Assembly (NCBI GenBank): GCA_013334525.1
Contig: JAAXXK010000009.1
Span: forward strand, 6,624-70,623
Source of the DNA: Chlorobiaceae bacterium
Lineage (GTDB): Bacteria; Bacteroidota; Chlorobiia; Chlorobiales; Chlorobiaceae
DNA: 64,000 bases
Direction: 5' to 3'
Shown here one piece after another: positions 2,719 to 26,169 of the stretch. Position 1 is the stretch's first letter, and the number at the start of each line of letters is the position of its first letter. Both the position numbers and the translations under genes were made by a program. The notes beneath the pieces are model-generated. The model saw only the letters and a program-made list of their open reading frames with translations, ran no database searches and had not been told where the DNA came from.

Positions 2719-2760
2719 AGGGCCATTCTCCCCAAGCTGGTTGGTAACATAAAATTCGTA

Positions 2761-2801
2761 AAAAAAGGCAGCCTCACGATGACTTGTGAGGCTGCCTTTT
2801 T
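2761..2801. terminator. bidirectional rho-independent terminator between convergent SDR and dsbD genes
   Basis: 12-bp perfect stem aggcagcctcac / gtgaggctgcct (2766-2777 / 2786-2797), flanked by A6 upstream and T5 downstream. Confidence 0.8.
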
Positions 2802-2908
2802 ACAATGGTAACGCCAGCTGTTCAGCACAGCCCAGGCTCCGTCTCTCTTCCTTCCACTTAAGTCCCTTATGTCTTTGTCGTCCTTTTGGTCCTTCAGGGA
2901 TTCTACCG

Positions 2909-5691: not shown

Positions 5692-5741
5692 TGTAGGTCG
5701 TATTACATCATGGAAACCTCATCACAAAAACACAAGAACTA

Positions 5742-6962
5742 TCAGAATTTACGGGAAAATCCAAGCTGAAAGTCCCTGATGTTGAAGTAGGCTATCCCGG
5801 GGTCTCCATGACCATTGATGCACCAGTTGTAGCGCTGCTGGTATTGTTCATACCTGACATCGGCAAGCCAGCTGCGCCCGAGATCCCTGCTCACCTTCAG
5901 GCCGTAACTGAAAGCACCGAATGCCGACAGGCGCTGATCTTCGGAATAATATGAGGCCCCTGCCGGAGGTGGCGTAGGCGTTGCCGGATCATTCAACTCT
6001 GAGGCTCCGACAGGAACATAGAAATCGGCTGCGCTTTGCGAATGAAACCTGACAAGCGGCGTCAGCACCCATCCTTTCGACAACGGCTGGACATATTCGG
6101 CATCGAAAGTGTGCGCCCTTACACCGAAGGTATCAGAGTAATAACGGTAGGACAATCTGCCGGTTCCGTCAGTACCTTCAAAATGGTGGTTCCAGCGAGT
6201 CATGACCGTATAGATGTTACGATGGTCCGGCCTGAGGTCCGGTGCTTTATAGGGATCGGAGTAATAGCCGTGACCATGGGTATAAGTCAGGTTCAACTGG
6301 ACGATGTCGTTTTTGGAGACGACCTGGGTCAAGCCGACCAGCCCGGAATAGACTTTTTTCCTGCCTGTCGCAAGCTGAAATTTGGCAGGATCAACAGCTG
6401 GCTTGTCCAGGGCAATGGTATCTCTGTTATATGCGGTACCGAGACTTAAGGTAGTATTCTTGTCTTCAGTCGACAGCGTGCCGTTTAAAGAGAGACCTCT
6501 GGAGATGTAATCAGACTCCTGGGAGTAAGTTGCACCGGCACTCAGGGTGCCTCTCGAAAAATATCGGGTTACCGAAATATCCCCTGCATGACGAAGCTCT
6601 CCGGAAGCTCCTGAAGCAGCATCGTGTTTCGGAGAGCTGGATGGAAAACCGGAAGAGTGGTATAATGGGGAGGCGCCTGTAATTGAATCTTCAATGAAAG
6701 TTGCAGAGATGGACCACTTGCCGGCAATCGGCACCATGCCCATAAACGAGAGAGCGTTGACATTGATTCTGTCCCGCGTCATTCCAGCCGTTTGGGCAGT
6801 ATCGCCTGACTGGCTGTCGTGATAATTCAGATATTTGATGCCGACGATCGCCCGATCGGGCGCAGCTTCGGCATAGATGCTCTTTGGGGATGGCGAAAGC
6901 ATCGCTGCAGATGCAACAAGAATGCTGAAAACAGTAGATTTTGTTGTCAAACCCAAAGCCAT
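5742..6962 (-). CDS. outer-membrane beta-barrel protein, DUF3570-like
   Basis: Signal peptide, alternating beta-strand pattern and C-terminal ...QLGFSRKF (terminal Phe). The position between a DUF4266-like lipoprotein and ApbE matches a neighbourhood I recall for DUF3570. It contains DSITGAS and DAASGAS motifs. Confidence 0.65.
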   Translation of the reverse strand: MALGLTTKSTVFSILVASAAMLSPSPKSIYAEAAPDRAIVGIKYLNYHDSQSGDTAQTAGMTRDRINVNALSFMGMVPIAGKWSISATFIEDSITGASPLYHSSGFPSSSPKHDAASGASGELRHAGDISVTRYFSRGTLSAGATYSQESDYISRGLSLNGTLSTEDKNTTLSLGTAYNRDTIALDKPAVDPAKFQLATGRKKVYSGLVGLTQVVSKNDIVQLNLTYTHGHGYYSDPYKAPDLRPDHRNIYTVMTRWNHHFEGTDGTGRLSYRYYSDTFGVRAHTFDAEYVQPLSKGWVLTPLVRFHSQSAADFYVPVGASELNDPATPTPPPAGASYYSEDQRLSAFGAFSYGLKVSRDLGRSWLADVRYEQYQQRYNWCINGHGDPGIAYFNIRDFQLGFSRKF

Positions 6963-7000
6963 ACGTCCGATCCCTTAATGATTATTTCGCAGATATCGCA

Positions 7001-7231
7001 TCAATTACATCCGCAACCGCCACCGCCAACCCCGGCTCCTCCTGAAGCAGCCTCCTTGCTACCGTAGATATGCTCGGAATATCCGCTATCAAGCCTGTCG
7101 CCTTCGAAAGTCATCTCAGGTTTGGCCAGGTTCTGCTTTTCCCAGGGCTTGACGCTGGAACATCCAGAGAGGGTTGAGATCATCAACAGAAACAGGGCCG
7201 ATACCCAGGATAGAAAAATCATTATTTTCAT
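7001..7231 (-). CDS. small lipoprotein, DUF4266-like, with Gly-rich GGGGCGCN C-terminus
   Basis: Lipobox LSGC after a hydrophobic leader. 76 aa with a C-terminal GGAGVGGGGCGCN tail. The start overlaps the stop of the upstream tlpA-like gene. Confidence 0.65.
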   Translation of the reverse strand: MKIMIFLSWVSALFLLMISTLSGCSSVKPWEKQNLAKPEMTFEGDRLDSGYSEHIYGSKEAASGGAGVGGGGCGCN

Positions 7232-7717
7232 CGCTTATCCTCCAAAGCTGCCTTGATACTGTTTTCAAGTTCCTCCCTGTCGGACTCCCTGAATCCTTGG
7301 TGCTGTAATAGAATCCGGCCATTCCTGTCGATCAGGAAACTTGTCGGCATACCTTTTTCACTGTAACCACGAGCATTTTCTCCCTTCGAATCGAATGCAA
7401 CCGTAAAATGAGCAGGGGTTTGCGCCAGAAACTTTTTGGCATCATCTGTTTTTGCATCAAGGTTGATGCCGATAACCTTAAATCCTTTTGATCTGTATTT
7501 TTCCTGCATCTGGTTTATCCAGCCGAAAGACTGAGGGGCCACACCATGAAGCCCAGAAATCCAGATAGATAACCTCGCCGGCATTAGCTGAGAGGTTGAC
7601 TACTCCATGGACACCGGGTAAAGAGAAATCAGGTGCCTTATCACCTTTCCCGAGGGCATAACTGTTGGAGCACAACCCAAGCGATACAATAATAGCAATA
7701 TAATACGCCCTGGGCAT
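7228..7717 (-). pseudogene. TlpA/ResA-family periplasmic thiol:disulfide oxidoreductase, frame disrupted inside the CxxC motif
   Basis: Frame A (7478..7717) encodes a signal peptide and ...YLDFWASWCGPS, then nonsense. Frame B (7228..7584) continues ...QSFGWINQMQEKYRSKGFKVIGINLD... to a normal thioredoxin-fold C-terminus. The junction is near 7530-7535 (tggtgtggcccc-t-cagtctttc). Confidence 0.7.
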
Positions 7718-8167: not shown

Positions 8168-8761
8168 TTACTTTGCCATTTTGAGGGCTACAGTTGCTGT
8201 GCCACCATCGGCTACGGTAACTGTGGTTTTGCCTTGTGGTTTCAGCTTCTCGCTCCATGCCGTGATTTCGTAGGTACCGGCAGGAACGTTGGGGATAGAG
8301 AATTTTCCGTCTGCGCCGGTTACAGCATAAGCATTGCTGTCAACAACAACGACATAACCGGACATTTCAGAATGGACATTACAGAGAAGGTTTACAACGC
8401 ATGACTTGTCAAACACAACTGATTTTGTCATGCCGGGATTGTATGTGCCAAGGTTAAACTTCTTGCAGACATCGGCAGAAAAGATGTTGTGGTTAACCTT
8501 GTCGCTGTTCTTGAAATCCACACTGGAACCAGTCGGAACAGCAAGTACATGAGGTATAAATACAAGATTTTTCTGGTCTACTTCAGCTTTTTTCGGCGTA
8601 ATCGGGCCCTTGACACCCTTGAGGTAGACTACCACATCTTTTTTGTATTTCGGAATAGCAACATCGACCGTACCGGTTACCGTGCCGGCACAAAAAGCAT
8701 TCGTTGAAACTAATCCTAAGCCAGCTGCAATAATGGCAGTTTTCAATACTTTACTTTTCAT
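8168..8761 (-). CDS. type-1 (blue) copper cupredoxin fused to a CarboxypepD_reg-like Ig domain, periplasmic
   Basis: Signal peptide. Candidate T1Cu ligands are His91 (DKVNHNIF) and Cys127-x2-His130-x2-Met133 (LLCNVHSEMSGYVVVV), an amicyanin-like spacing. C-terminal GADGKFSIPNVPAGTYEITAW. AAGGAG SD present. Confidence 0.7.
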   Translation of the reverse strand: MKSKVLKTAIIAAGLGLVSTNAFCAGTVTGTVDVAIPKYKKDVVVYLKGVKGPITPKKAEVDQKNLVFIPHVLAVPTGSSVDFKNSDKVNHNIFSADVCKKFNLGTYNPGMTKSVVFDKSCVVNLLCNVHSEMSGYVVVVDSNAYAVTGADGKFSIPNVPAGTYEITAWSEKLKPQGKTTVTVADGGTATVALKMAK

Positions 8762-12103: not shown

Positions 12104-12988
12104 TCACACGTTGAACCAGGGAGTTATCCAGACATATTTGATAAGGAAAACCAACCTGAGTATCATCTTTATCGGTATAGACATCATGGTGATGAAGAGA
12201 AAGACAATAGTGACATAACGAATCATGCCCAACTGCTGAAGTAATTCAGGATTCTTCTTCTGCCAGTATTTGTATGGCCAGACCATTCCGCCGACCATAT
12301 AAACCCCCACAACTATCGCTCCAATGATGAAACCTGCAAGAGAGCGAGATTCAACACCTACAAGATTTGAAAGATCTCTCGTAGGCTCAAAAACCACCCG
12401 ATGGGCATCCCACTCCTGCCATGGCCAGTACCACAACCATCCCGGTCCCCTGTCGAAAACGCCGATGACAATCAACAAGAGCCAAAGGATGAAAAAGCCG
12501 AACGAGAAGATAATGATCGAATATTTCCTCTCGGAAAAGGTGTAGTAACCGTTTCCTTTCGGATTTGTGTCGATATAGGGAATCGCGATCAGACCAACAA
12601 CGATCAGTGACGGCAGCACAACGCCTGCAAGCCACGGATCAAAGTACACCAGCAATTCCTGAAGGCCAAGGAAATACCATGGCGCTTTTGCCGGGTTAGG
12701 CGTCAACGTCGGATTTGCAATCTCCTCAAGCGGAGCATCGACAACGATGGACCAGATGGTCAGGAAAAGCATGACAGCAAGAGAAATGAGAAGCTCTATA
12801 CGAACAAGAGGCTTGTAAGTATCTACATCCTGGTCATTTTCACCATCGACGGCGTAACCGGATGCTTTGAGCTTGTCGTTCTGAAAAGCCTGCTGAAAAG
12901 CCCATACCATGAAAAAGCTCACCATCAAGATCATGATCACGATGGCGATATTATCCGGCTGGGTAATGATTTCGATAAATGGGTTCAT
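12104..12988 (-). CDS. cytochrome b C-terminal / subunit-IV-like protein, extended (about 6 TM)
   Basis: Qo-loop-like motif KAPWYFLGLQELLVYF, cf. PEWYF of subunit IV / cytochrome b. The Met at 12988 (MNPFIEII) follows the cyt b stop by 14 nt. The track ORF extends spuriously to 13099. Confidence 0.75.
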   Translation of the reverse strand: MNPFIEIITQPDNIAIVIMILMVSFFMVWAFQQAFQNDKLKASGYAVDGENDQDVDTYKPLVRIELLISLAVMLFLTIWSIVVDAPLEEIANPTLTPNPAKAPWYFLGLQELLVYFDPWLAGVVLPSLIVVGLIAIPYIDTNPKGNGYYTFSERKYSIIIFSFGFFILWLLLIVIGVFDRGPGWLWYWPWQEWDAHRVVFEPTRDLSNLVGVESRSLAGFIIGAIVVGVYMVGGMVWPYKYWQKKNPELLQQLGMIRYVTIVFLFITMMSIPIKMILRLVFLIKYVWITPWFNV

Positions 12989-13002
12989 AAGTTCTTGCCC
13001 TG

Positions 13003-13770
13003 TCAGTGATTTTGAGGTCTTGAAATTCCACCGTCTTTTCTGACTCGCCAGAAATGGACAACCATTAAAACGGTTGCGATGAGCGGTATGGCGATGCAAT
13101 GCCAGATATATGATCTAAGCAGAGCGTTACCACCCACCGTTGCACCACCCAGCAGTGCGAAGCGAATATCATTGTAAGGCGTGATATGCAGATATTCACT
13201 GAACGGCCCCTGATAACCTAGAAGCGGAGTCGCAGCACCCATGTTGGTACCCACGGTGATAGCCCAGAATCCGAGCTGATCCCACGGCAGCAGGTAACCG
13301 GTAAAACTCAGCAGGAACGTCAGTACCAGCAAAATAACACCAATCCCCCAGTTAAACTGACGTGGAGCCTTGTAGGAGCCGGTCATGAAAACCCTGAACA
13401 TGTGGATCATCACGACGATAACCATAAAGTGGGCCCCCCACCGGTGCAGGTTCCTGGTTATGACGCCATAAGGAACCTGGAACTCCAGATCCTTCATGTC
13501 CGAGTATGCCTGGTCTACCGATGGGTGATAATAGAACATCAGCACCACGCCGGTAATGGTCAGGATTATGAACGCCAAAAACGTTATTCCGCCCATACCC
13601 CAGGTATATCTGAGCTTTACGGCGCTTTCGCGAACCTTCACGGGATGGAGGTGAAGAAAAACGTTGCCGAAAACGGCAAGGGCCCGATCCCTGACGTTAT
13701 CCCTGTAATCTCTTCTGAATACGGATTTCCATATCAGATTTTTTTTCACCTTGTTAAATAGATCGCTCAT
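13003..13770 (-). CDS. cytochrome b6-like (N-terminal four-helix) cytochrome b
   Basis: Bis-His haem ligand spacing in helix B ([17 protein letters not shown]-x13-H) and helix D ([18 protein letters not shown]-x14-H). LPWDQLGFW block present. Confidence 0.85.
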
Positions 13771-13800: not shown

Positions 13801-14133
13801 TTATCTGTAGCCACGCAGCCGTTGCAATTGCTTTGCATATTCGGCGGGATCTTTTTTCGTGCCGTCAGCATTGACCATAATGATTGCGAACCAAGGGCAA
13901 TCAATGGCGCAGATATTACACCCGGTGCAGCGTTCATTGACGGTCGCGACCCCTTTGAAGTTCAGCTCAGAAGGCACGATCGTCACACAATTGACCGGAC
14001 AGACGTTGGCACAGATAGCGCAGCCAGTACAGAGGTCGATGTTGACCAATGCCAGCGCTCTTTTCCTCGCACCGGGCTGATTCTGCGATGCAGAAACGTC
14101 CTGGTCCTGAATGATCTCTTCGTTGGTATCCAT
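13801..14133 (-). CDS. 2[4Fe-4S] dicluster ferredoxin, no signal peptide
   Basis: Two CxxCxxCxxxCP motifs: CTGCAICANVCP and CTGCNICAIDCP. Located between the Rieske and cytochrome b genes. Confidence 0.85.
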   Translation of the reverse strand: MDTNEEIIQDQDVSASQNQPGARKRALALVNIDLCTGCAICANVCPVNCVTIVPSELNFKGVATVNERCTGCNICAIDCPWFAIIMVNADGTKKDPAEYAKQLQRLRGYR

Positions 14134-14166: not shown

Positions 14167-14706
14167 TCATGCTTTCAGTAGGCTTTGCGGATAGACCTCA
14201 TTCGACTCCCTGCCAGGAATGCCGGGGAACTTGATGGTCTTGTCCACCAGAAGCTGTCCATCTTCAGCGATACTGATCTTGAAACGGTCCATCGGTCTTG
14301 GAGCCGGACCTTCGAAGTTCAGGCCTGTGATGTAGTAGCCACTGCCGTGACACGGGCATTTGAATTTTTTCTGCGATTCCAACCAGCTCGGTGTGCAACC
14401 AAGATGGGTACATTTGGATTCCATAGCAAAAAAGCGTCCGTCCTGGAGACGAATGATCCAGGTGCCGAACTCCCTCTGGTACTGCGAATTAACAACGCCT
14501 GGCGGGTAGTCGTTTGGAAACCCAACCTTGAACTGCGACGGCGGTTCGAATAGCACCCTCGGGAAAAAGAACCTTAAAAACGCGTAAGAGTTTATTGCGA
14601 GAAAGCCGGCAAGACTTCCCCATCCGACGCGCGTAAGAAATTGCCGCCTGTCTCCGGATACCTCTGGGCCTTTTCCGGATACGGGATTCTCATACTGATC
14701 CTGCAT
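14167..14706 (-). CDS. Rieske [2Fe-2S] protein with twin-arginine leader
   Basis: Box I CTHLGC, box II CPCHGS, and DRRQFLTRVG Tat-type motif plus an anchor helix. Confidence 0.9.
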   Translation of the reverse strand: MQDQYENPVSGKGPEVSGDRRQFLTRVGWGSLAGFLAINSYAFLRFFFPRVLFEPPSQFKVGFPNDYPPGVVNSQYQREFGTWIIRLQDGRFFAMESKCTHLGCTPSWLESQKKFKCPCHGSGYYITGLNFEGPAPRPMDRFKISIAEDGQLLVDKTIKFPGIPGRESNEVYPQSLLKA

Positions 14707-14831
14707 GGCAGATAGATTTTTCTTTCACTGAGACCATTTCTGAACTTGATACTGTTCCTTCGAAACACATACTTCGCGTGAAGATCGGAATGATTGGAGA
14801 ACCTGAAAGAATACTTAAACCCGCAGGCTCT

Positions 14832-14904: not shown

Positions 14905-14995
14905 GTAATACCACTCCATTCGATTACTACAATACCGCCTCCCTGCTCGAGAGGCGGCATGTATGACAATGGCTTTCGTTAAGCTACTGTCAGGC

Positions 14996-16264
14996 TCAGA
15001 ATGCGAAAGAGCCCTGGAGCGCGAACGTATTCGGAACGGTATCGCCAAGGGCGTTAGAACCAGAGGTACCAGGCCAGCGATGCCTGATCAGATTGGTGTA
15101 GGTCGCTGACACGTAGGCATTCGCCCTGAGATGGGCCGTCATTCCAAACGCAAGGCTGGGGCTGTTTGCGATAGCTGTACCATTCAAGCCTTTTGCGCCA
15201 CTCCTGAGGTTCGAGTAGGTAACGGTTGTCTGCAGCCATGGATAGACGAAGTAGATGGCGTTGACGCGGTAGTTATCGTATCCGAGATCGCCGTCCCTGC
15301 TGTACGCAGCACCAAGCGAGAGGTTGCTGTAGTTGCCTGTTACGTCGAAACCATAGATCTGGGTTTCACCCGCGTAGTTGCCAGTCATGATGCCTTTGTT
15401 CGCCGTCATGTATGTGGCGCCGAGTGCGATGTGGTTGTCGAGACCGACATACTCGTTGCCGTAGGTGCCGCCTGCACCGCTCAGCAGGCCTGCGCCGCCG
15501 ATCTTGTACTTGGCGTGGGCATAGACGATGTCAGTGAAGAGGTTTGTGTTGGCGGTGCCACCTTCAGCGATACCGACGTTAAGCTTGAAACCACCGCTCT
15601 TGCCGGTGATATATGAGAACTCAGCTCCGGTGCCCGGTGCCTGGAAGGTGCTGTTGTAGACCTGGATCTGGTTACCGAAGGTGAAGTCGGAGAAGCCGTT
15701 ACCCAGGGCAAGGTTTACGCCAGGGGCGAAAGACCAGATAACGTGACCAGTCGGAGCAGTGGTTGTGGAAAGGTTGTACTGGCCGAAAGCAGAAAGGTTG
15801 TCGCCGATCGTACCGCCGAAGAACATTGTCGAGGTGCTCAGGATGCCGGTACCGTTGTTGAAGGTCGATTTCGTCTTGACGGTATTGTTAACAGTTTTAA
15901 CCTCATCCGAATAGTTTACAAGCTGTCCCCTGAACCAGAATCCGAGGGGGACGTTTCCGGGGATGTCTGCCGGATAGGGAGATTCGGGAAATGTTTTTTT
16001 CCAGCCGTCAGAGCCCAGCTTCAACTGCTCCTGCTTCGACTTTTCTTCGTCTTCTCCACCTGGCCAGCGGTAGCCGTTGTTACGGAAAGCTTCACCGAAT
16101 GCGTTCCTGGTTGGGAATCCAGAGTGACAGGTATAACATGAGGTTCCATATTTACGGGCAAAAGCTGGCATAGCCGATGCATCCTGGCTCGGCAACAGCA
16201 TTGGCGCAGTACAAAGCGTCACAACGGAAGCAATAGTTAACTTTCTTCTCATAAAACTCTCCAT
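14996..16264 (-). CDS. cyc2: Cyc2-like fused monohaem cytochrome c - outer-membrane porin
   Basis: Signal peptide (...SQDASA). A single CYTCH lies within AFARKYGTSCYTCH, about 12 aa after the predicted cleavage site. About 370 aa of amphipathic beta-strand segments follow, ending ALQGSFAF. The true start may be the Met at 16252, which has GGAGAG upstream. Confidence 0.7.
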   Translation of the reverse strand: MESFMRRKLTIASVVTLCTAPMLLPSQDASAMPAFARKYGTSCYTCHSGFPTRNAFGEAFRNNGYRWPGGEDEEKSKQEQLKLGSDGWKKTFPESPYPADIPGNVPLGFWFRGQLVNYSDEVKTVNNTVKTKSTFNNGTGILSTSTMFFGGTIGDNLSAFGQYNLSTTTAPTGHVIWSFAPGVNLALGNGFSDFTFGNQIQVYNSTFQAPGTGAEFSYITGKSGGFKLNVGIAEGGTANTNLFTDIVYAHAKYKIGGAGLLSGAGGTYGNEYVGLDNHIALGATYMTANKGIMTGNYAGETQIYGFDVTGNYSNLSLGAAYSRDGDLGYDNYRVNAIYFVYPWLQTTVTYSNLRSGAKGLNGTAIANSPSLAFGMTAHLRANAYVSATYTNLIRHRWPGTSGSNALGDTVPNTFALQGSFAF

Positions 16265-17156: not shown

Positions 17157-17552
17157 TCAAAAAGGAACCTCAGGGGCCTCCCCTTCTTCACCTGTAAGAA
17201 GGCGATACTTCTTGCATGCGCATTTGCATCCGTTCCTGCATGATTTTTTATAAAGCGCGACGGCCTCTTCAAGGCTTTTCGGCACTCCTCTGCCCTGCTC
17301 ATACATCTCCCCGAGGTTGAACATCGCCTCCCCATGCCCCTGATCAGCGGCCATACGGAACCATTTCACGGCTTCCACATCGTTCTGTTCAACGCTGGCC
17401 CCGATTTCATAGTATACTCCCAGCTTGTTCTGTGAGTCTGCGTCACCCCCGTTGGCTGCCTTCAAGGCCATACGAACACGTTGTTCGTCGCCTTTGGCTG
17501 TGCTGGAAAGCAGCGTAAGAAACATGGTCAATATGAGCAATTTCTTTATCAT
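17157..17552 (-). CDS. Sel1-repeat (TPR-like) periplasmic protein
   Basis: Signal peptide MIKKLLILTMFLTLLSSTAKG. Sel1 repeats include NKLGVYYEIGASVEQNDVEAVKWFRMAADQGHGEAMFNLGEMYEQGRGV. Confidence 0.8.
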   Translation of the reverse strand: MIKKLLILTMFLTLLSSTAKGDEQRVRMALKAANGGDADSQNKLGVYYEIGASVEQNDVEAVKWFRMAADQGHGEAMFNLGEMYEQGRGVPKSLEEAVALYKKSCRNGCKCACKKYRLLTGEEGEAPEVPF

Positions 17553-17663
17553 GGTATCCGGAGATTAGAATCGCGGCAATTGCATTCAAGACTGAAGCCG
17601 TTTGAGTGGCCAAAGTTAACTCTCAATGCATATAATAATATAGCGAAGCTCCTCCAACAGTAT

Positions 17664-17699
17664 AAAAAAAGGGAGGGTAACGAAAATACCCTCCCTTTT
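17664..17699. terminator. bidirectional rho-independent terminator after the TonB-dependent receptor gene
   Basis: A7-gggagggta-acgaaaa-taccctccc-T4. On the minus strand the stem is followed by T7. Confidence 0.8.
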
Positions 17700-17726
17700 C
17701 AGCGAAAAATGGCAGAAGATTCGAAA

Positions 17727-19874
17727 TCAGAACGACTGGGTCATGCCGATCATGAACGAGCGCCCCTGGCCTGCAAGTGCATCAAAGTACAACGGCTTTC
17801 CGCTTGCCTCAAGAGACTGGTCATAGTTCACGCCTCCCAGGGGCAGGTAATAGAACTTGTCGAACAGGTTCATGACCCCCAAATCCAGCTTCAGGTTTTT
17901 ATACTGATATGCTGTACGGAGGTTGACCAATGCATATCCAGAAGTTTTCGGCTCCAGACGCAACGGTTCAATATTCGATTTTTTGTCGACTACCTGAACT
18001 TCCACGACATTCGTCCATCCTGATATCTGTTGCTCTATCGTCATCCTGAGATTCAACGGCATCTGGTGATAGAGGCTGTTGCCGGTATCCAGGTTTTTCC
18101 CATGAACATATCCAATCGTACCGCCAATCTTTCCGCTACCGAAACCACCGGATTTCCAAAGTGAGGTTTTGCCGGAGATATTGATCCCGTAAAGCGCAGC
18201 ATCCTGATTGACGAACCTCAGTATGTTACGGGTGCCTGAGGTGCTGGCACCGAAATACTCCACGCCAATGTAATCGTTGACATAAGTGTAAAACGGCGCG
18301 ACCTTTACCTCGTAATCTCTTTTGTCGCTGTCATGAAAATCCGCCGAGATGCTGATCGTATGCGCCACTTCAGGCTTGAGATCCGGGTTGCCAAGATAGC
18401 CGTTGCCATCACCGAACCATCCGAGCATGCCGCTGCACATCCACATGGTCGACCAGGCATAACGTTCGTAGAGATTTGGAGAACGGGTCTTGCGTGCATA
18501 ACCGAGTTCATAAGAGGCGGTTTTCGATGGTTCCAGCTTTGCCATTGCCGAGATATCCCAATTGCTGTCGGTGCGGCGACGATCCAGCAGGTTGAAAGCA
18601 TCCGAATCCCTTTTGTAGTTCGTGACCATCGGTGACATTCCATTACTGTCCTTGTATCCATGGACATCGCCAGTATCCATCCTGACCTGCTCGTTACGAA
18701 CGCCGACAATCGTTGTCAACTGGTCATTTGGCCGGGATTCCCATTCTGCAAATAACACAAACCGGTCACGTTCACCGTTATAGATGTTCAGGAAGGAATT
18801 GGGCGACATGGTCATGCTCCCTGCAACAGGAGGCCATAGGTCATCAAGGGTGAAGCGGTGGTATTCGTTGCCAATGCGCAACAGGCTGTTGGATGAAATC
18901 CTGAACTCAGGCTTGATCGAATAGCCGATGTTTATGCCTCTCGTTTCCATTGGCATGTGGGGCATTTTCAGGGGAAACTCCAGCTTTTCCCTGCCTGAGT
19001 CCATCTTGTGCCAGGTGTTTTGCCAGTAAGCGCTAGCGTCCAGCTTGCCCCAATCGTAGCTGGCCTTGTAACCCGCGTTGATAAATGACGCGTCGTTATC
19101 GATCATGTCCATCCACTGGTTTACGAAACCCTGGTCGGGAATCGACTGGTGCCCTGCCTTGACCGTAATGACGCCGCTGTCGGTTTTGGCTGCAAGCGTT
19201 AAGCCGAGGTTGTTCGATTCGTAATAGGTTGAGGTTACCCTGTTGCCGTGGCCGTCAAAGTAATCACTGGCACGGTCATGAGAGGCTGTCACGCCGAAAC
19301 TCAGGTTGTTGTTTGCGACGGAACTTGTAACCGAAACCCCTCTGGCATGGTTGTTGCTCCGATAGTATGATGATATACTGCCGTTTTGCACGACCTTTTT
19401 TCCATTTGAAGCGAATACCGGTGCTACCGATTCCACTACAATAGTGCCGCCGATGTTGTCGCCGCCCATGCTGACTGGCGTCACGCCGGCATTGACGCTG
19501 ATACTGCCCACATTGGACGGAGGCAGATAGGAGAGCGGCGGGTTCATGTGGTTCGCGCAGGCGGAGGTTATCTCCATGCAATCTACACAGACCATAAGCC
19601 GATCATCACCAAGGCCGTTGACTACCGGAAGGCTCGATACTCCGCCGCCTGTCTGAAGGCTTACTCCCGGTTCATCGCTGAGCAAGGCAGCTGTATCGCT
19701 GGTTTTCAGGCGCGTTGAAACCACCGGTTTCAACGATTTATCACTCTTTGCAGAAACGACTACTTCCGGCATTTGTACTTCTGCTGCCAGCACCGAAGGT
19801 GGTGTTGCTGCCATTGCAGTAAGCAACGCAGCAAGCGGCCAGAACCTTATTATAAATTCTTGTGATTTGTTCAT
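17727..19874 (-). CDS. TonB-dependent outer-membrane receptor, possibly copper-type (OprC/NosA-like)
   Basis: Signal peptide, plug start PEVVVSA and a C-terminal ...MIGMTQSF barrel signature. Cys/Met/His clusters CVDCMEITSACANHMNPPLSY and PLKMPHMPME. The Met at 19874 (MNKSQEF) is preferred over 19928. Confidence 0.8.
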   Translation of the reverse strand: MNKSQEFIIRFWPLAALLTAMAATPPSVLAAEVQMPEVVVSAKSDKSLKPVVSTRLKTSDTAALLSDEPGVSLQTGGGVSSLPVVNGLGDDRLMVCVDCMEITSACANHMNPPLSYLPPSNVGSISVNAGVTPVSMGGDNIGGTIVVESVAPVFASNGKKVVQNGSISSYYRSNNHARGVSVTSSVANNNLSFGVTASHDRASDYFDGHGNRVTSTYYESNNLGLTLAAKTDSGVITVKAGHQSIPDQGFVNQWMDMIDNDASFINAGYKASYDWGKLDASAYWQNTWHKMDSGREKLEFPLKMPHMPMETRGINIGYSIKPEFRISSNSLLRIGNEYHRFTLDDLWPPVAGSMTMSPNSFLNIYNGERDRFVLFAEWESRPNDQLTTIVGVRNEQVRMDTGDVHGYKDSNGMSPMVTNYKRDSDAFNLLDRRRTDSNWDISAMAKLEPSKTASYELGYARKTRSPNLYERYAWSTMWMCSGMLGWFGDGNGYLGNPDLKPEVAHTISISADFHDSDKRDYEVKVAPFYTYVNDYIGVEYFGASTSGTRNILRFVNQDAALYGINISGKTSLWKSGGFGSGKIGGTIGYVHGKNLDTGNSLYHQMPLNLRMTIEQQISGWTNVVEVQVVDKKSNIEPLRLEPKTSGYALVNLRTAYQYKNLKLDLGVMNLFDKFYYLPLGGVNYDQSLEASGKPLYFDALAGQGRSFMIGMTQSF

Positions 19875-19905
19875 GAGGTAACATTTATTCTTTGAAATAG
19901 TGAAG

Positions 19906-19931
19906 CTTGCGGCTGGAATTCCAGCCACAAG
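19906..19931 (-). promoter_or_regulatory. 11-bp stem-loop in the 222-nt leader of the receptor gene
   Basis: Minus-strand RNA cuuguggcugg-aauu-ccagccgcaag (one G-U pair), about 30 nt before the receptor ATG. Could be an attenuator or a processing site. Confidence 0.35.
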
Positions 19932-20663: not shown

Positions 20664-20846
20664 ATGGCCATGACCGTTGAAATCAGGGACAACAAGCTTT
20701 GCATCGAAATCGACATGCAGAAGCCTGAACCGTCAGCATCTGGAAAAACCCTTGTGGTGGCAAGCACAAAAGGCAATGTGGTCACCTCGGTCGTCGTTGA
20801 CGGCAAACCGGTAACCATAGGCCTGAACGCCTATATCAAGAAATAG
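20664..20846 (+). CDS. small conserved-looking hypothetical protein (60 aa)
   Basis: GGAAGGAG SD 5 nt upstream of ATG at 20664. Reads MAMTVEIRDNKLCIEIDMQKPEPSASGKTLVVASTKGN.... The 3' end overlaps the convergent recD by 11 nt. Confidence 0.6.
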   Translation: MAMTVEIRDNKLCIEIDMQKPEPSASGKTLVVASTKGNVVTSVVVDGKPVTIGLNAYIKK

Positions 20847-22578
20847 GGCGGGCTCCGGCAAGTGCTTCGCGCAGTCCCGAACGCCTTTCGATACGACGCC
20901 TGACGGCTGAAGTGAAAACCTTTTCGTCGCCCCAGATGGCGATCGATTCCTTTCCCCTCGTGATACCGGTGTATATGAGCTCCCTGGTCAGCAACGCCTT
21001 GTCTTCCGGAGGAAGTACCAGTAGAACGCGCTGGAACTCCGATCCCTGGCTCTTGTGAACAGTCATCGCAAATGCGGTTTCGTGGTGCGGCAGGAATTCG
21101 GGAGGAATGCTTCTTGCCGAGCCATCCGGTGCCGCAAAAAATGCCCGGAGAAGGCCGGTTTCCGGGTCGGGGAAGATAATTCCGGTGTCGCCGTTGAAGA
21201 GCCGGTGCGAGTAATCGTTCTCCGTAATGAGCAGTGGCCTGCCCCTGTAGAAAACGCCGTCTCGGCGAATCAGGGCGGCTCCGGCGAGCAACGCTTCTGC
21301 CGCCTGGTTCATCCCGCTCGCTCCCCATGGCCCTTCACGCAGCGCACAGAGTATCCTGAAGCGTTCGAACCGTTGCAGGGCTTCAAGCGGCTCTTTCGCC
21401 TCAAGATATTGGCGGTATCCATCAAGCACAAACCCCGAAAGTCGGGTTCGTATATGCTCTACCATCGGCGATGGTTCGAGGGAAATAGTGCCGCCGGTCT
21501 GGCCAAACAGGCTCAACGCCATATGCTCTTCACCGGCATTGACCGCACGGCTGAGCTCTCCAATACCTGAGCCTTCACTGAAACGATAATTCTTTTCAAG
21601 TACCGTCACGCAGCCTTCGACTGCAGATCCGGCTGACTCTCCCGCCCTGCAGATATCACCGAGCACGGCCCCGGCAGCTACCGAGGCGAGCTGCTCCTTA
21701 TCGCCGAGGAGTACAAGCCTTGCGTCAGGAAGCAGTGCGCTGATGAGGGCCGTCATGAGCGGCAAATCGACCATGGAGGCCTCGTCGACAATTACCGTGT
21801 CATAGGGCAGCGGGTTTTGTGCCGTATGCCTGAACCTGGCTGCTCCGGGTAGCGGACCAAGCAGACGGTGAATGGTTGTAACCGCATCGGGAATGGCTCC
21901 TTTGACCTCGTCGGCGCAGGGCAGTGACTCCCTGATGGCCACGATGGAAGAGCTGAGCCTGGCTGCAGCCTTTCCGGTCGGAGCGGCCATGGCGATGCGT
22001 TGCCTCAGCCCGCCTGGTTGTTCGAGAAGAAGGGCGAGAATGCGCACGACTGTCGATGTCTTGCCCGTGCCGGGTCCGCCCGAAATGACCGAGAAACGCC
22101 TCATCAGCGCTGAAGATGCCGCCTCCCTCTGCCGCTGGTCGCCCTTTCCGTCCGTTGGCAGCAGCCTGTCGAGACTTTCGCAAAGCGATGATCCGTCGAT
22201 CTCTTCCAATCGTGAAGAGGCCCTCGAACGGATCTGCTCCGACAGCGTTTCCTGGTATCGGAAGTATCGGTAGAGATAGAGCCGTCCTTCGTTGTCCAGC
22301 ACAAGGGGGCAATGCTCACCAGGTCGACCGACCGATGGCAACGATCGGACCATCGACAGCAATGTATCCCGTTCAGGCATAACCATATCGGAGCGCTCTT
22401 GGAACCTTACGACTCCTCCTGCGATCTCGGTCAGGTCAAGGCAGATGCTTCCCTGTCCGACCGACTGGCTCAACAGTGAAACTACCGTACCGAGCATCTC
22501 GATATCTCCCGATGCCCTGCGGCAGAGAAAATCTGAGGCCTGCCTGTCGATCGGCCGTTCAAGGAAATCGATGACCAT
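20836..22578 (-). CDS. recD: exodeoxyribonuclease V alpha subunit
   Basis: Walker A ISGGPGTGKTST, VIVDEASMVD, and C-terminal AMTVHKSQGSEF. Confidence 0.9.
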   Translation of the reverse strand: MVIDFLERPIDRQASDFLCRRASGDIEMLGTVVSLLSQSVGQGSICLDLTEIAGGVVRFQERSDMVMPERDTLLSMVRSLPSVGRPGEHCPLVLDNEGRLYLYRYFRYQETLSEQIRSRASSRLEEIDGSSLCESLDRLLPTDGKGDQRQREAASSALMRRFSVISGGPGTGKTSTVVRILALLLEQPGGLRQRIAMAAPTGKAAARLSSSIVAIRESLPCADEVKGAIPDAVTTIHRLLGPLPGAARFRHTAQNPLPYDTVIVDEASMVDLPLMTALISALLPDARLVLLGDKEQLASVAAGAVLGDICRAGESAGSAVEGCVTVLEKNYRFSEGSGIGELSRAVNAGEEHMALSLFGQTGGTISLEPSPMVEHIRTRLSGFVLDGYRQYLEAKEPLEALQRFERFRILCALREGPWGASGMNQAAEALLAGAALIRRDGVFYRGRPLLITENDYSHRLFNGDTGIIFPDPETGLLRAFFAAPDGSARSIPPEFLPHHETAFAMTVHKSQGSEFQRVLLVLPPEDKALLTRELIYTGITRGKESIAIWGDEKVFTSAVRRRIERRSGLREALAGARPIS

Positions 22579-25500
22579 TCAACTCTCCTCCCCTTTTTCT
22601 ATAAGGATAGCGCCCAGTTCCCTGATCAAAGCCTCCGGGGGTAGATCGCGGAAAAATCCCGTCTGTTCGCCATTGCTTGCGCTCACCCCGCGAAGGAATA
22701 CGTAGATCACGCCGCCGAAATGGGTGGCGTAGCTGTAACCCGGCACGCGAAGCGAGAGGTAACGGTCGAGCGCGACGGTATAAAGCAGGTACTGCAATGG
22801 ATAGAGGTTCCCGGTCATTGCCTGTCGTAGCGACTCCGCCCGGTAATCGTCAGGCGAGTTGCCGAGATGGTTCGATTTCCAGTCGAGCAGCCAGTATTTT
22901 CCGTCCGCCTCGAACACCATATCCATGAATCCAAGCAACATGCCCTTCACCGGTTTAAAATCGAGCGCGGCTGCAACGGAAGCCAGATCGACACCGAACG
23001 CCATGGCGCCATGCCGTACGAGCACTTCGGCAAGCTCCGGCGAAGCCAGCCGTTTCAGCGGGAAGAAAAACTCAAGTTCGGTGATCCATCTGGCCTGCTT
23101 CAATCCGCCGAGCGTGAACGAGCCGCCATGGGATGAAAGCTGCACAGTGAGCACTTCCAATGCCTTTTCCACCATGCAGTGCTGCCAGCTCCTGTCGAAA
23201 CCGTAACGGTCAAGTCCCTTTTCAACGAGCTCCGCCAGGGCGCTTTCAGACGGGGCAGCAAAATCGAGCGATTCGAAGATAGAGTGCATGAACAAGCCGG
23301 CCCTTGCTCCCCGGTGAAAAGAAAAAACAGTACGGTCCCCTTCCGGAAGCACGATTGCCGGTCGCTGTTCCAGTTCTGATTCGTCGCGATCCGGCAGTTC
23401 GTATGCCTTGTGCTGATGACGGCTGAAAGAGGTGAAACTCGAAATCCGCCAGTCACTTTCCAGTTTTGTATGGAATCTTCTCCTGTCAGCAACCTGCCCG
23501 GCAGGGGCAACAGGCCGCAAAGGCCTCTGCTGTTCGGCGTCAACGGATGCAAGCCTCCTGAAGCCTATCGATCCCCCCGAACCGTCGCTCAGCTCCTGAA
23601 GCACTCCGGCCATTGCCTCGGCATCCATGGCATCGAATTCACTCCTGGCTGCATCGACCACCTCCGGCCTCTGTTTTGCGGCGTCCGAAACATAAAGGAG
23701 ATAGGCTGTCGGTGAAAAGTTTCGCAATCCACCTCTCCGACTTCCATCGATTACCCGGCCGGTAAAGAAAACGCAGCGACGTTCTGCCCTGGTCAATGCG
23801 ACATAGAGAAGGCGCATGCTCTCGGCAAGCGATTCCCTGGCCGCCATGGCGCGATGCCCGGCAATTCCGGCCGATCCGAAATCCTTGACCATGTGACCAT
23901 GCTTGTCATGGAAAAGCACCACGTCGCCGCCGGAACCGCCCCCGGCGAACAGGAATGGACAAAAAACCACCGGGTACTGGAGCCCTTTACTCACATGGAC
24001 CGTCACGATCCTGACAGCCGATTCGTCGCTTTCAAGGCGGATCTGGTACTCATCGCCGGGCTCTTTCGATGCCACCCGCTCACTGAACCACGATACGAGC
24101 CCCTCCATCCCCAGCCCATGGTCATGGCTGTGGCGGTGCAGCAACTCGAAGCAATGCAGTACGTTGGTCAGGCTTCGGTCTCCCGACGAGTCGGCAACCG
24201 CCAGCAGTCGCTCCCGGACAGCCTCACGACGCATCAGCTCCCTTGCCATGACCATGAACCCCTGTTCGAGCCATATCCGGTGATAATCGTTGAACTGCTG
24301 TAGCCAATTCGCCCAGGCCGATTCATCGTGGTTCAGGCGGTCGATATCACTGCCGGTAAGTCCAAACAACGGGGTGACAAGCGCCGCCCTGACCTGCGGC
24401 TGCCTGCCCGGATCGGCCAGGGCGGTTACCGTGATCCGGACATCTTCAGCCTCTCGTGAGGCGAACACGCTCTCGTCGCTTCGCATTACGGTTGGGACTC
24501 CCTGGGCGCGCAGTGCAGCCTGCGCCAATCGGGCCTGCCGATGTGTGCGCACGATGACGGCGATTTGGGCGGCGTCAGCTTTGCCGTCACGAATCATCCC
24601 GGCGACTCCCGCAGCGCAGGCGGCCGATGCAAAACTTTCGGCCTCTCCGCTTTTCATGATCCCCCCGTTGCTGCCGGAATCCATAAGACAAATCTCAAGC
24701 GGCGGCTCTTCAGCATCACCACTCTCCACATCCGTTTTACCGGGCACAAGCGGAGGTGAGGGTATCTCTTCAAGCACAAACGGGAGATGGGTGCTGTCAA
24801 AAAGGATGTTGAAACCCCGGAGGAGTTTTGGAACGGAACGCCAGTTCGAATTCAGGGTGAATCGACGCTCCCCGCAAACATCGGCAGCGGCCTTCAGGTA
24901 TGCGAAAATGTCGGCCCCGCGAAAGCTGTAGATCGCCTGTTTTGGATCGCCTATCAGGAATAGCGGAGCATCTGATTCAGCGTAGATCGTCCTGAAGATA
25001 TCGTATTGGAGCGGATCGGTGTCCTGAAACTCATCGATCAGTGCTGCCTTGTAACGCTTTCGGAGAGCCTCGGCCATCGCTGCCGATTCCGGCCCATCGG
25101 CAAGGACCTTGTAAAGATCCTCCAGCAAGTCGTCGAAGAACCTGAGATTGCCCTCGCGCTTGCGTTCCGGCAGCCGTTTTCTGAAAAACGCCACCATCTC
25201 GGCCTTCAGTGCGAGAAGCCGTTCATCTACGGCCGACATAAGCCTTTGGCAGGCGTCGAAGAGCGCGTGTTGCGGAGCCGTACCTGTCGGCTTGGTGCCA
25301 TCCATGATTCCGGATGCGGTCATTTTGCCGAATCCTTTGAACAACCCGAAGGGATTGCCGGTTTCGACGAATGACTCCATTTCGGCCAGGAGTTTCCCTA
25401 CCCGGTCCAACCGGTATGCCGACTCGGCACGGCTGAGCCCCCGGTCCTCCTTCAGCACCAGGGAGACTGACTCCCTCTCCTGCCGCCAAATCCGGCAGAC

Positions 25501-26169
25501 CTCGACGAATAAGGCGGAACAATTGGTTTCGAGGGTCGAAATATCTGATTCACTGTACTGCGGCAACACCTCTACCCGGGCCGATACGTTCAGTTCGCGC
25601 AGCAACTTCATGAAGGCGTTGGGCGAGCATTTCTTCTCGAGAGCGTAACCGAGCAAGGGACTGCGATCCGTAAAAAAGCGTTCACGCCAGAAGTCGTCAA
25701 CCACTTCGCGAGCGAGCATGCTCTGGTCAGGCACCAGCTCAGTATCGTAGAGAGAGCCGCTTTCGAATGCGTTATCCTGCAAAGCCCGCAGGCAGAAGCC
25801 GTGGATGGTGAAAATCGAGGCCGTATCAAAGGCCGCAAGGGCAGCTTCTAGCGCCCCGGCAGCTTTCTGTGCCGTACCTGATAAAACAGCCTGGTCGCAA
25901 AAACCTGAGAGAAAATGATCATCCGTTGCCTCTCCCCGCATCGCGTCGAGGGCTTCGCGAATCCTTTTTCGGATCCTCGAACGAAGCTCCTGGGTGGCGG
26001 CTTCGGTATAGGTCACCACAAGGATCTCTTCGGGCTGAAGCTCCTTTTCGACCAGCAGGCGCAGGTACAACGAAGCTATCGCATAGGTCTTGCCGGTCCC
26101 TGCGCTCGCCTGTATGAGGTTCATTCCCGAGAGGGCGATTGAAGAGTGATCCAGTATCCTCATCGTCAT
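22579..26169 (-). CDS. recB: exodeoxyribonuclease V beta subunit
   Basis: LIQASAGTGKTYAIA helicase motif I. C-terminal nuclease block GFMDMVFEADGKYWLLDWKSNHLG. The ATG at 26169 overlaps the recC stop (ATGA). The track ORF's 30-aa N-terminal extension is rejected. Confidence 0.9.
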   Translation of the reverse strand: MTMRILDHSSIALSGMNLIQASAGTGKTYAIASLYLRLLVEKELQPEEILVVTYTEAATQELRSRIRKRIREALDAMRGEATDDHFLSGFCDQAVLSGTAQKAAGALEAALAAFDTASIFTIHGFCLRALQDNAFESGSLYDTELVPDQSMLAREVVDDFWRERFFTDRSPLLGYALEKKCSPNAFMKLLRELNVSARVEVLPQYSESDISTLETNCSALFVEVCRIWRQERESVSLVLKEDRGLSRAESAYRLDRVGKLLAEMESFVETGNPFGLFKGFGKMTASGIMDGTKPTGTAPQHALFDACQRLMSAVDERLLALKAEMVAFFRKRLPERKREGNLRFFDDLLEDLYKVLADGPESAAMAEALRKRYKAALIDEFQDTDPLQYDIFRTIYAESDAPLFLIGDPKQAIYSFRGADIFAYLKAAADVCGERRFTLNSNWRSVPKLLRGFNILFDSTHLPFVLEEIPSPPLVPGKTDVESGDAEEPPLEICLMDSGSNGGIMKSGEAESFASAACAAGVAGMIRDGKADAAQIAVIVRTHRQARLAQAALRAQGVPTVMRSDESVFASREAEDVRITVTALADPGRQPQVRAALVTPLFGLTGSDIDRLNHDESAWANWLQQFNDYHRIWLEQGFMVMARELMRREAVRERLLAVADSSGDRSLTNVLHCFELLHRHSHDHGLGMEGLVSWFSERVASKEPGDEYQIRLESDESAVRIVTVHVSKGLQYPVVFCPFLFAGGGSGGDVVLFHDKHGHMVKDFGSAGIAGHRAMAARESLAESMRLLYVALTRAERRCVFFTGRVIDGSRRGGLRNFSPTAYLLYVSDAAKQRPEVVDAARSEFDAMDAEAMAGVLQELSDGSGGSIGFRRLASVDAEQQRPLRPVAPAGQVADRRRFHTKLESDWRISSFTSFSRHQHKAYELPDRDESELEQRPAIVLPEGDRTVFSFHRGARAGLFMHSIFESLDFAAPSESALAELVEKGLDRYGFDRSWQHCMVEKALEVLTVQLSSHGGSFTLGGLKQARWITELEFFFPLKRLASPELAEVLVRHGAMAFGVDLASVAAALDFKPVKGMLLGFMDMVFEADGKYWLLDWKSNHLGNSPDDYRAESLRQAMTGNLYPLQYLLYTVALDRYLSLRVPGYSYATHFGGVIYVFLRGVSASNGEQTGFFRDLPPEALIRELGAILIEKGEES

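Follow-up and report, generated by a model that had tools for sequence, protein, structure and literature searches.

Iron-oxidising bacteria use Cyc2, a single haem domain fused to an outer-membrane barrel, to carry electrons through the outer membrane. No marker gene for neutrophilic Fe(II) oxidation and 'oxidative' extracellular electron transfer in lakes is in wider use than cyc2, and its occurrence in Chlorobia is taken as a sign of photoferrotrophy, which has been invoked for the oceans of the early Earth. In the Fe(II) pathway of Acidithiobacillus ferrooxidans, Cyc2 works together with rusticyanin, Cyc1/CycA1 and the bc1 complex PetI, which runs in reverse. To our knowledge, the link between Cyc2 and the inner membrane is still hypothetical in all neutrophiles. 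Here, we describe a cyc2-like gene and its surroundings in a 64,000-nucleotide stretch of DNA from a Chlorobiaceae bacterium (assembly GCA_013334525.1, contig JAAXXK010000009.1, positions 6,624 to 70,623; hereafter the window, to which all positions refer). The gene stands at the head of a conserved cluster, whose other members encode one-electron carriers of the periplasm and an unusual, quinone-linked Rieske/cytochrome b complex that includes an octahaem cytochrome c (the Rieske/b-octahaem complex), a candidate for the inner-membrane partner of Cyc2.

In Chlorobia, cyc2 has been reported to lie always adjacent to a gene for a c5-family cytochrome, which in 'Ca. Chl. canadense' carries a CCxCH motif (Tsuji et al. 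2020). Multiple Cyc2 copies are already on record for lake Chlorobia ('three homologs', 'multiple copies', 40% of lake Chlorobium metagenomic operational taxonomic units), and the Chlorobium of Trout Bog has three Cyc2 homologues, one of them reportedly transcribed far above other donor oxidoreductases. The published signature of the family comprises AXPXFAR[Q/K][T/Y] before CXXCH, PXL after it, a length of at least 365 residues and a porin modelled on OprO/OprP (Keffer et al. 2021). The window protein is an additional member of this family already reported in Chlorobia; what it adds is a distinction between paralogues and a Cyc2–Rieske/b-octahaem cluster that crosses phyla and contains an anammox-like Rieske protein.

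Results

A fused cytochrome–porin of the Cyc2 family

The initial annotation read the open reading frame (ORF) as a monohaem cytochrome c fused to a β-barrel porin, with a signal peptide, a single CYTCH motif close to the mature N terminus, a long run of barrel-like segments and an outer-membrane-type C-terminal Phe. All of these elements are present. The peptides on which the reading was based lie in the ORF at residues 34–47 (AFARKYGTSCYTCH), 108–118 (GFWFRGQLVNY), 174–188 (HVIWSFAPGVNLALG), 225–235 (GFKLNVGIAEG) and 332–343 (YRVNAIYFVYPW), with GSFAF at the C terminus, and CYTCH, at the nucleotides given for it, spans residues 43–47 and is the sole CxxCH of the protein. F422 closes the chain, and a C-terminal Phe is conserved in at least 90% of the clade described below. 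The signal peptide, read by eye, consists of RRK, the hydrophobic stretch LTIASVVTLCTAPMLL and A-S-A before M32. Cleavage is predicted after A29-S30-A31, leaving a mature chain that starts M32-P-A-F-A-R-K-Y, and the first A of the published AXPXFAR motif is therefore probably the −1 residue of the signal-peptidase site. The gene itself probably starts at M5, with the listed M1 four codons too far upstream and a product of 418 residues, because a GGAG (16259–16262) lies 6 nt 5′ of the ATG at 16252 and a Met is aligned at M5 in 99% of 144 family sequences.

We then compared the protein with the membership criteria of Keffer et al. 2021, McAllister et al. 2020 and FeGenie. The signature AXPXFAR[Q/K][T/Y] is found as A31-M-P-A-F-A-R-K-Y39, followed by G-T-S and then by the first Cys of the haem motif, and P33, F35 and R37 are 97–99% conserved in the 144 family sequences. 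The spacing from motif to Cys equals that of the Mariprofundus ferrooxydans orthologue AIPAFARQTGAAC, whose motif reads AIPAFARQT. At 418–422 residues the protein exceeds the minimum length of 365. Together with the single CxxCH, the predicted porin barrel and the homology to M. ferrooxydans orthologues, these characters support the Cyc2 architecture claimed for the ORF and its assignment as a true member of the family; PXL alone departs from the published pattern and is taken up in the Discussion.

A word-indexed search returned 244 relatives of the window protein. Among the 120 listed, all those with a named source are Chlorobiaceae or Chlorobiales metagenome bins, and they are annotated 'hypothetical protein' or 'porin'. 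The best homologue belongs to a 'Chlorobaculum sp.' metagenome-assembled genome (MAG) from soil (85% for Cyc2, 97–99% for the neighbouring proteins). A search with a hidden Markov model built from the clade reached much further, to 2404 representatives of 50%-identity clusters at E ≤ 1e-3, 619 of them at E ≤ 1e-10. Among the best 150 of these 2404, nearly all full-length representatives have a single CxxCH, 410–530 residues and an aromatic C terminus, and they carry A-I-P-x-F-A-R-K-Y-x-T-S-C-x-T-C-H-x-x-[FY]-P-K-L-N-A-F-G-E-A-F-R.

For comparison with a validated member, Cyc2 orthologues of M. ferrooxydans were fetched by means of the tryptic peptides published for Cyc2PV-1. The orthologue used, P0288, is not that of PV-1 itself: it contains 2 of the 12 published peptides unchanged, whereas the others that we inspected by eye deviate at a few residues. 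BLASTP aligns the window protein to P0288 over the first 84 mature residues (E 4e-7, 30% identity). Profile–profile alignment of the Chlorobiaceae and Zetaproteobacterial families with hhalign gives 98.5% probability and E 1.8e-15; the 114 aligned columns take in the cytochrome domain and the first strands. The remaining barrel is too divergent to align with M. ferrooxydans Cyc2, and low alignability of the barrel is likewise reported in the literature on the family.

The same searches bear on the simplest alternative, that the ORF encodes an ordinary diffusion porin with a chance CxxCH. One homologue is indeed annotated 'porin', and on the window protein Pfam gives only a sub-threshold match to Cytochrom_C (E 0.11) and no porin family, and NCBIfam gives nothing. 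From these library results we take it that this Cyc2-like family falls outside the Pfam and NCBIfam collections. A PDB search with the protein sequence found nothing meaningful, and tblastn against plasmids gave no match. With 3 Cys and 6 His in 422 residues, about 2e-4 CxxCH motifs are expected by chance. The motif is invariant in alignments of 26, 88 and, family-wide, 144 sequences, so it is not a product of chance; since the flanking motif is also invariant in all homologues and the protein is homologous to validated Cyc2, an ordinary porin is ruled out for practical purposes.

The predicted barrel and its divergence

An AlphaFold2 model based on an 88-sequence alignment agrees with the proposed barrel (mean predicted local distance difference test score (pLDDT) 78.4, predicted template-modelling score 0.77). 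Residues 107–421 form an all-β region in which most 10-residue blocks between 111 and 421 have a mean pLDDT of at least 80, and DSSP assigns 17 strand segments to the model, mostly at high pLDDT. Confidence is low in the haem domain because no haem was modelled. The top 50 Foldseek matches in the PDB (E 2e-10 to 5e-7) are all β-barrels of the general porin fold or entries derived from them, with 16-stranded porins as the best matches: BpsOmp38 (2e-10), Omp32, OprP (2o4v, 5e-9, template-modelling (TM) score 0.49) and OprO (4rjw, 1.4e-8). OprP and OprO are the published modelling templates for Cyc2 (Keffer et al. 2021), and the fold of the model is thus OprO/OprP-like, as described for the family. 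The initial annotation would have been refuted by the lack of a predicted barrel, or by closest homologues that are ordinary porins with a non-conserved CxxCH; instead, the model has a barrel and every homologue keeps the motif.

The length of the barrel, about 315 residues, and its templates fit 16 strands. In the model, the alternation of short and long connections would put the start of strand 1 on the extracellular side, with the haem domain and linker inside or above the barrel. A Gly-rich loop between strands 9 and 10 is modelled at pLDDT 59–69, and its columns G257, G259, G263, G266, G269, N270, G274 and D276 are invariant or near-invariant. Where the clade of the window protein has Gln, at Q199, 63% of family members have a His.

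The cytochrome domain is better conserved than the rest of the protein and aligns to Zetaproteobacterial Cyc2. Across the Chlorobiaceae loci of the window's clade, it is 76–92% identical, as against 38–63% for the barrel, with one exception (L035, 91% versus 87%). In the close relative L001, the cytochrome domain is at 85% and the barrel at 63%, and the neighbouring Rieske, cytochrome b and octahaem proteins are at 95–99%; when L038 is included, the ranges are 85–92% for the haem domain, 60–63% for the barrel and 88–99% for these neighbours. Such divergence fits a surface-exposed, fast-evolving barrel.

cyc2 leads a conserved Rieske/cytochrome b cluster

A scan of one genome per GTDB species with short clade-specific patterns, which returned MAGs only and no isolate genome, gave 79 loci, almost all in Chlorobiaceae bins. 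By tblastn with the window proteins and clustering of the Cyc2 sequences, we defined two paralogue clades. In clade A, which contains the window protein (43–88% identity), 44 loci are informative, their downstream DNA being long enough, and in about 40 of these cyc2 is immediately followed by the Rieske-to-cupredoxin cluster, in the order cyc2, Rieske, ferredoxin-like, cytochrome b6, subunit IV, octahaem cytochrome, cytochrome c and cupredoxin. These loci come from many Chlorobiaceae species-level genomes and differ in their upstream genes, which encode a TonB receptor and a Sel1 protein or are ccsA/resB-like. The second clade (32–40% identity; motif P-V-F-A-R-K-Y-H-T-A-C-S-T-C-H within loci L049–L077) has the Rieske cluster in 1 of its 25 loci. 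The window gene is thus the first member of a conserved cluster with periplasmic one-electron carriers and the Rieske/b-octahaem complex.

The arrangement extends beyond the Chlorobiaceae. Octahaem homologues of 830–880 residues occur in genome bins of Chlorobiaceae, Glassbacteria, Calditrichia, Desulfobacterales and Ignavibacteria. In the Glassbacteria (L080) and Desulfobacterales (L081) bins, a Cyc2-family gene with the full motif (profile E 1e-42 and 9e-52, respectively) is followed by genes for a cupredoxin-like protein, a Rieske protein, in L080 a ferredoxin-like protein, which about 40 loci also have at this position, and then b6, subunit IV, octahaem cytochrome and cytochrome c. The cupredoxin domain lies between cyc2 and the Rieske gene in these two bins and at the end of the cluster in Chlorobiaceae. 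An Ignavibacteria locus, L074, has an arrangement that resembles the Cyc2–Rieske/b cluster; in another, L082 (7762–17285), the Rieske/b-octahaem genes are followed by genes for a caa3-type haem-copper oxidase, and there is no Cyc2. We found no description of a Cyc2–Rieske/cytochrome b linkage in the literature searched, which is not proof of novelty.

Further copies and neighbours were seen in these loci. In some genomes a further clade-A cyc2 copy follows the genes for cytochrome c and cupredoxin, or lies close to a cupredoxin gene where Rieske genes are lacking (L034, 2–3042; L030, 6222–11293); the window has no second clade-A copy. A further Chlorobiaceae Cyc2 type, P0123 (CYMCH; L083, 4290–7368), is a candidate third clade, and the 437-residue ORF that precedes it, without a Pfam domain, may be a tandem copy. 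In the Glassbacteria bin, positions 1–4698 ahead of the cluster encode a molybdopterin oxidoreductase with an EB_dh haem subunit, an FeS subunit and a NarJ-like chaperone.

Relation to the published Chlorobia cyc2

Given the c5 linkage reported for Chlorobia, we looked for CxxCH ORFs beside cyc2. In the window there is none between cyc2 and the upstream Sel1 gene, and the downstream neighbour is the Rieske gene. An adjacent c5-type gene is found in 0 of the 79 loci, including those of L227-S-6D and both loci of 'Ca. Chl. canadense' (L304-S-6D). Across the 79 loci, seven CxxCH ORFs lie within 2.5 kb, but each is remote, is on the other strand, has several haem motifs or is the cytochrome c of the cluster itself (L034), and the P0123 type also has no c5 neighbour. 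Because it lacks this neighbour, we regard the window gene as a paralogue or locus other than the published Chlorobia cyc2. Judged from sequence and gene order, it belongs to a Chlorobiaceae paralogue clade without a c5 neighbour and is set apart from the published locus by its neighbourhood.

Several genomes of the earlier work are themselves among the loci. L227-S-6D, L304-S-6D and L227-2013-56 carry orthologues of the window gene, and the full cluster is present in L227-2013-56 (L022) and in 'Ca. Chl. canadense' L304-S-6D (L039). The Trout Bog bins GSB-A and GSB-B are also represented (L027, L029, L062, L065).

Components of the cluster and its surroundings

The features of cyc2 and of the genes behind it are collected in Table 1. 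Where subunit IV starts is uncertain, since the TTG listed as its start codon lies within the gene upstream. In the cupredoxin, the pattern of H91, C127, H130 and M133 marks candidate type-1 copper ligands.

Table 1. Features of the cyc2 gene and of the downstream cluster, in window positions.
Feature	Position	Strand	Basis or remark
cyc2-like ORF, fused monohaem cytochrome c and β-barrel porin	14996..16264	-	422 aa as listed; probably 418 aa from M5, nt 16252
Predicted Sec-type signal peptide, residues 1-31	16172..16264	-	read by eye; common to all aligned homologues
Cyc2 signature A31-M-P-A-F-A-R-K-Y39	16148..16174	-	motif definition from Keffer 2021
Haem c attachment motif C43-Y-T-C-H47	16124..16138	-	only CxxCH; invariant in homologues
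N-terminal cytochrome domain and Pro-rich linker, residues 32-106	15947..16171	-	includes G49-F-P-T-R-N-A-F-G-E-A-F60
β-barrel porin domain, residues 107-422, ends F422	14999..15946	-	AlphaFold2 strands, Foldseek porin matches
Gly-rich loop G256-G-A-G-L-L-S-G-A-G-G-T-Y-G-N-E-Y-V-G-L-D-N277	15434..15499	-	between strands 9 and 10
Two stem-loops directly after the cyc2 stop	14928..14992	-	-34.9 kcal/mol, z = -5.5 vs shuffles
Rieske [2Fe-2S] subunit, twin-arginine anchor RRQFL, boxes CTHLGC and CPCHGSGY	14167..14706	-	Pfam Rieske E 3.9e-10
110-aa 2x[4Fe-4S] ferredoxin-like subunit, no signal peptide	13801..14133	-	Pfam Fer4_21, Fer4, others
Cytochrome b6-type subunit, 4 helices	13003..13770	-	Pfam Cytochrome_B E 6e-41; best PDB matches are cytochromes b6, E 8e-41
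Subunit IV-like membrane protein	12104..13099	-	Pfam Cytochrom_B_C E 4.6e-6; multiple hydrophobic segments
Membrane-anchored octahaem cytochrome c, 8 CxxCH, one N-terminal transmembrane helix	9439..12057	-	motif count
Monohaem class I cytochrome c, lipoprotein signal L-A-G-C25	8990..9442	-	Pfam Cytochrome_CBB3 / Cytochrom_C
Secreted cupredoxin fused to a CarboxypepD_reg-like domain	8168..8761	-	Pfam

The best PDB match of the Rieske protein is Kustd1480 of Kuenenia (9rk3; E 1.6e-38, 49% identity over 107 residues). Kustd1480 has a measured potential of +335 mV, as against about +150 mV in typical menaquinol enzymes, and its parent complex, made up of b6, subunit IV, a multihaem cytochrome c and an FeS/FAD component, has been proposed to bifurcate electrons towards NAD(P)H. 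This raises the idea that the window complex is an energy-coupling device that bifurcates or confurcates electrons, with menaquinol, ferredoxin or another cytoplasmic acceptor of low potential, and a high-potential partner, periplasmic or extracellular and reached via Cyc2, as the three parties. Beyond the match to Kustd1480, box II (CPCHGSGY) of the Rieske protein has both hydrogen-bond donors, and both Chlorobiaceae and Glassbacteria have kept the ferredoxin-like subunit, which lacks a signal peptide and whose gene separates those for the Rieske protein and cytochrome b. However, the ferredoxin-like gene is missing from the Desulfobacterales and Ignavibacteria versions and bifurcation is itself unproven in anammox bacteria; we consider coupling of this kind improbable.

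The cytochrome b subunit has further features of its own. Its residues 1–45 include an N-terminal extension of about 40 residues with F-L-H-L-H-P, and in models of the Kuenenia complex a His of the corresponding region carries an additional interfacial haem b. The subunit apparently lacks the Cys to which haem cN is bound in b6f complexes (Y-T-W-G-M-G-G).

Folding revealed two strong stem-loops between the cyc2 stop codon and the Rieske gene (minimum free energy in Table 1). A simple terminator scan did not call them, and a consensus scan for promoters and terminators gave counts not above those of shuffled sequence. The hairpins are a possible terminator or attenuator. Four related loci conserve about 60 nt before the Rieske start (14707–14770) as well as a GT-rich tract (GGTTGTGTTGG); read together with the hairpins, this would point to a terminator or attenuator followed by a further promoter or a 5′ untranslated region. 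From the hairpins and the conserved stretch it follows that cyc2 may be transcribed partly separately.

Upstream of cyc2, on the same strand, are genes for a Sel1-repeat protein and a TonB-dependent receptor (17727–19928; both within 17157–19928) and recD/recB/recC-like genes (20836–29390). This side of the locus is the basis of another alternative, in which the protein is a non-bioenergetic porin whose haem domain serves iron handling (Fe(II) oxidation or sensing, detoxification or uptake) together with the TonB-dependent receptor, which lies just upstream with the Sel1 gene and is syntenic in the closest relatives. The TonB/Sel1/rec synteny is common only to those relatives (L001, L003, L035, L038 and others), whereas the linkage to the Rieske/b genes holds across the clade and across phyla, and a role in iron handling is thus very improbable.

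Beyond the cluster, positions 2909–7584 of the same strand encode a TlpA-like redoxin, a DUF3570 protein (a predicted outer-membrane barrel), an ApbE flavin transferase and DsbD (a reductant for cytochrome c biogenesis); the DUF3570 and redoxin genes also adjoin the cluster in many related loci. No photosynthesis genes are among the window ORFs scanned, and Rfam gave no match in the whole window.

Discussion

From the domain order we propose how the protein may work. It would be exported by Sec and, right at the beginning of the mature chain, would carry one haem c on C43 and C46, its proximal ligand being H47. Residues ~107–422 would insert into the outer membrane as a porin-like barrel, with the small haem domain in or at the barrel. 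With Sec export, an N-terminal haem and a barrel combined in this way, one polypeptide could thus pass single electrons across the outer membrane, and Cyc2 would exchange electrons between dissolved extracellular redox species and periplasmic carriers. We infer that Cyc2, these carriers and the Rieske/b-octahaem complex form one path from the cell surface to the menaquinone pool.

As for the direction of flow, we lean, with modest confidence, towards an inward one, in which electrons are taken up from Fe(II) or reduced humics and feed a carrier pool that re-reduces the reaction centre. Electrons from Fe(II) or reduced humic matter would pass through Cyc2 to a periplasmic pool of cytochrome c or cupredoxin. 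This pool would be shared with the Rieske/b-octahaem complex and would ultimately re-reduce the photo-oxidised reaction centre, and extracellular electrons would thus serve as the photosynthetic electron donor. Chlorobia depend on external electron donors. Inward flow is favoured because of this need and because every biochemically tested Cyc2 is an Fe(II) oxidase (Keffer et al. 2021); an Fe(II) oxidase activity of the window protein is inferred at the level of the family. It is favoured also because the cluster is present in L227-2013-56, which is reported to lack sulfur-oxidation pathways (Tsuji et al. 2020), and because one Trout Bog Cyc2 homologue, which may or may not belong to this clade, is reported as highly transcribed.

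Several observations weigh against this interpretation. At the level of the protein, the PXL of the published signature is replaced by P51-T-R53. Leu occupies this column in 82% of the 144 family sequences; Arg is invariant at R53 in the Chlorobiaceae alignments and sporadic elsewhere, for example in the unrelated members P0151 and P0154. Because N-A-F-G follows as in the rest of the family, we read P-T-R as a subfamily variant rather than a loss of the region. In addition, the 144-sequence alignment of the cytochrome domain shows neither a Met nor another His that is conserved and could bind the haem on the distal side. At the level of the organisms, 'Ca. Chl. canadense', which carries the full cluster, could not be induced to photo-oxidise Fe(II) (Tsuji et al. 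2020). Finally, the inward model alone leaves the Rieske linkage unexplained, since electrons could be supplied to the reaction centre in a simple way that does not call for a Rieske/cytochrome b complex, and an outward role of Cyc2 would be equally natural, given that the complex beside a haem-copper oxidase in L082 has the usual direction from quinol to acceptor.

In such an outward model, electrons would flow from menaquinol through the Rieske/b-octahaem complex to the cytochrome c or cupredoxin and on through Cyc2 to extracellular Fe(III) complexes or oxidised humic quinones, with Cyc2 as a terminal reductase, for example in dark maintenance metabolism. Rieske/cytochrome b complexes normally run from quinol to an acceptor, and since the orthologous complex of L082 adjoins a caa3-type oxidase, Cyc2 would fill the role of terminal acceptor elsewhere. 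The module also occurs in non-phototrophic anaerobes (the Desulfobacterales bin L081 and the Glassbacteria bin L080), the failure of 'Ca. Chl. canadense' to oxidise Fe(II) would agree with outward flow, and reductive extracellular electron transfer genes and dark metabolism have been discussed for Chlorobia in the literature. Against this stand the biochemically tested Cyc2 proteins, all of which act as Fe(II) oxidases, and the physiology of green sulfur bacteria, which are donor-limited photoautotrophs. We know of no Cyc2 that has been shown to reduce an external acceptor, which also counts against an outward role, and both the outward route and a terminal-reductase function for Cyc2 appear less likely to us than uptake.

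The composition of the cluster allows a broader, tentative proposal that we ourselves regard with some doubt: Cyc2, cupredoxin/cytochrome c, Rieske/b6 and octahaem cytochrome, with or without the 2[4Fe-4S] protein, may form a supermodule that wires extracellular electron exchange to the menaquinone pool, and the anammox-like, high-potential Rieske protein and the ferredoxin-like subunit might couple it to a low-potential cytoplasmic reductant. If true, the supermodule would supply the inner-membrane partner that Cyc2 has been missing in these lineages, and Rieske/cytochrome b complexes would gain a new functional class. The cluster of Cyc2, cupredoxin, lipoprotein cytochrome c and Rieske/b-octahaem complex is a concrete, testable pathway, and it is present in an enrichment-cultured organism. 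For the use of the marker, counting 'cyc2' as one trait can mislead, because Chlorobiaceae have several paralogues in different gene contexts; 'Ca. Chl. canadense', which carries the cluster yet has not photo-oxidised iron, is a warning in this respect.

Comparison with known systems

A characterised relative is Cyc2PV-1 of M. ferrooxydans (cluster 1; Keffer et al. 2021), which has been expressed in E. coli with the ccm plasmid and has a midpoint potential of +208 mV. Both proteins have a signal peptide, the sequence I/M-P-A-F-A-R-[QK]-[TY]-x3-CxxCH...P-x-[LR]-N-A-F-G, a length of about 420 residues and a poorly conserved porin of the 16-strand type, with profile homology over the cytochrome domain and the first strands. 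The window protein has P-T-R where Cyc2PV-1 has P-A-L, and its CxxCH is closer to the Pro by one residue; identity is about 30% over 84 residues, and the barrel is not alignable by BLASTP. The hosts and neighbourhoods also differ, the window gene coming from an anaerobic phototroph and standing before a Rieske/b-octahaem cluster. Among Chlorobia, the cyc2 locus published for photoferrotrophs and for bins from boreal lakes (Tsuji et al. 2020; He et al. 2017) shares the phylum and the protein family with the window gene, but it is linked to c5 and the window gene is not.

OprP, OprO and general 16-stranded porins share the barrel fold (Foldseek probability 1.00, TM-score 0.45–0.6), but they have no detectable sequence similarity to the window protein and carry no haem domain. 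The porin–cytochrome complexes MtoAB, PioAB and MtrCAB also perform outer-membrane electron transfer; in these, a decahaem cytochrome passes through a larger porin of about 26 strands, and the parts are two or three individual proteins. We rejected this class for the window locus, where one polypeptide has one haem motif and a barrel of about 315 residues.

The genes behind cyc2, rather than the Cyc2 ORF itself, resemble Kustd1480–1485 of Kuenenia stuttgartiensis, which also combine b6 and subunit IV with a multihaem cytochrome c in place of f/c1 and an extra FeS subunit. The anammox complex has a large FAD/NAD(P) oxidoreductase instead of the 110-residue ferredoxin-like protein, and neither a Cyc2 nor a cupredoxin. 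For the pathway as a whole, the nearest counterpart is that of A. ferrooxidans, which likewise has an outer-membrane Cyc2, a periplasmic cupredoxin, a class I cytochrome c and a quinone-linked Rieske/cytochrome b complex; the cupredoxin of the window is likened to rusticyanin by role only. In the window, which comes from a neutral-pH, menaquinone-using anaerobe, the components are encoded in one cluster, and the complex is of the b6 type, with an octahaem cytochrome instead of c1 and an additional 2[4Fe-4S] subunit.

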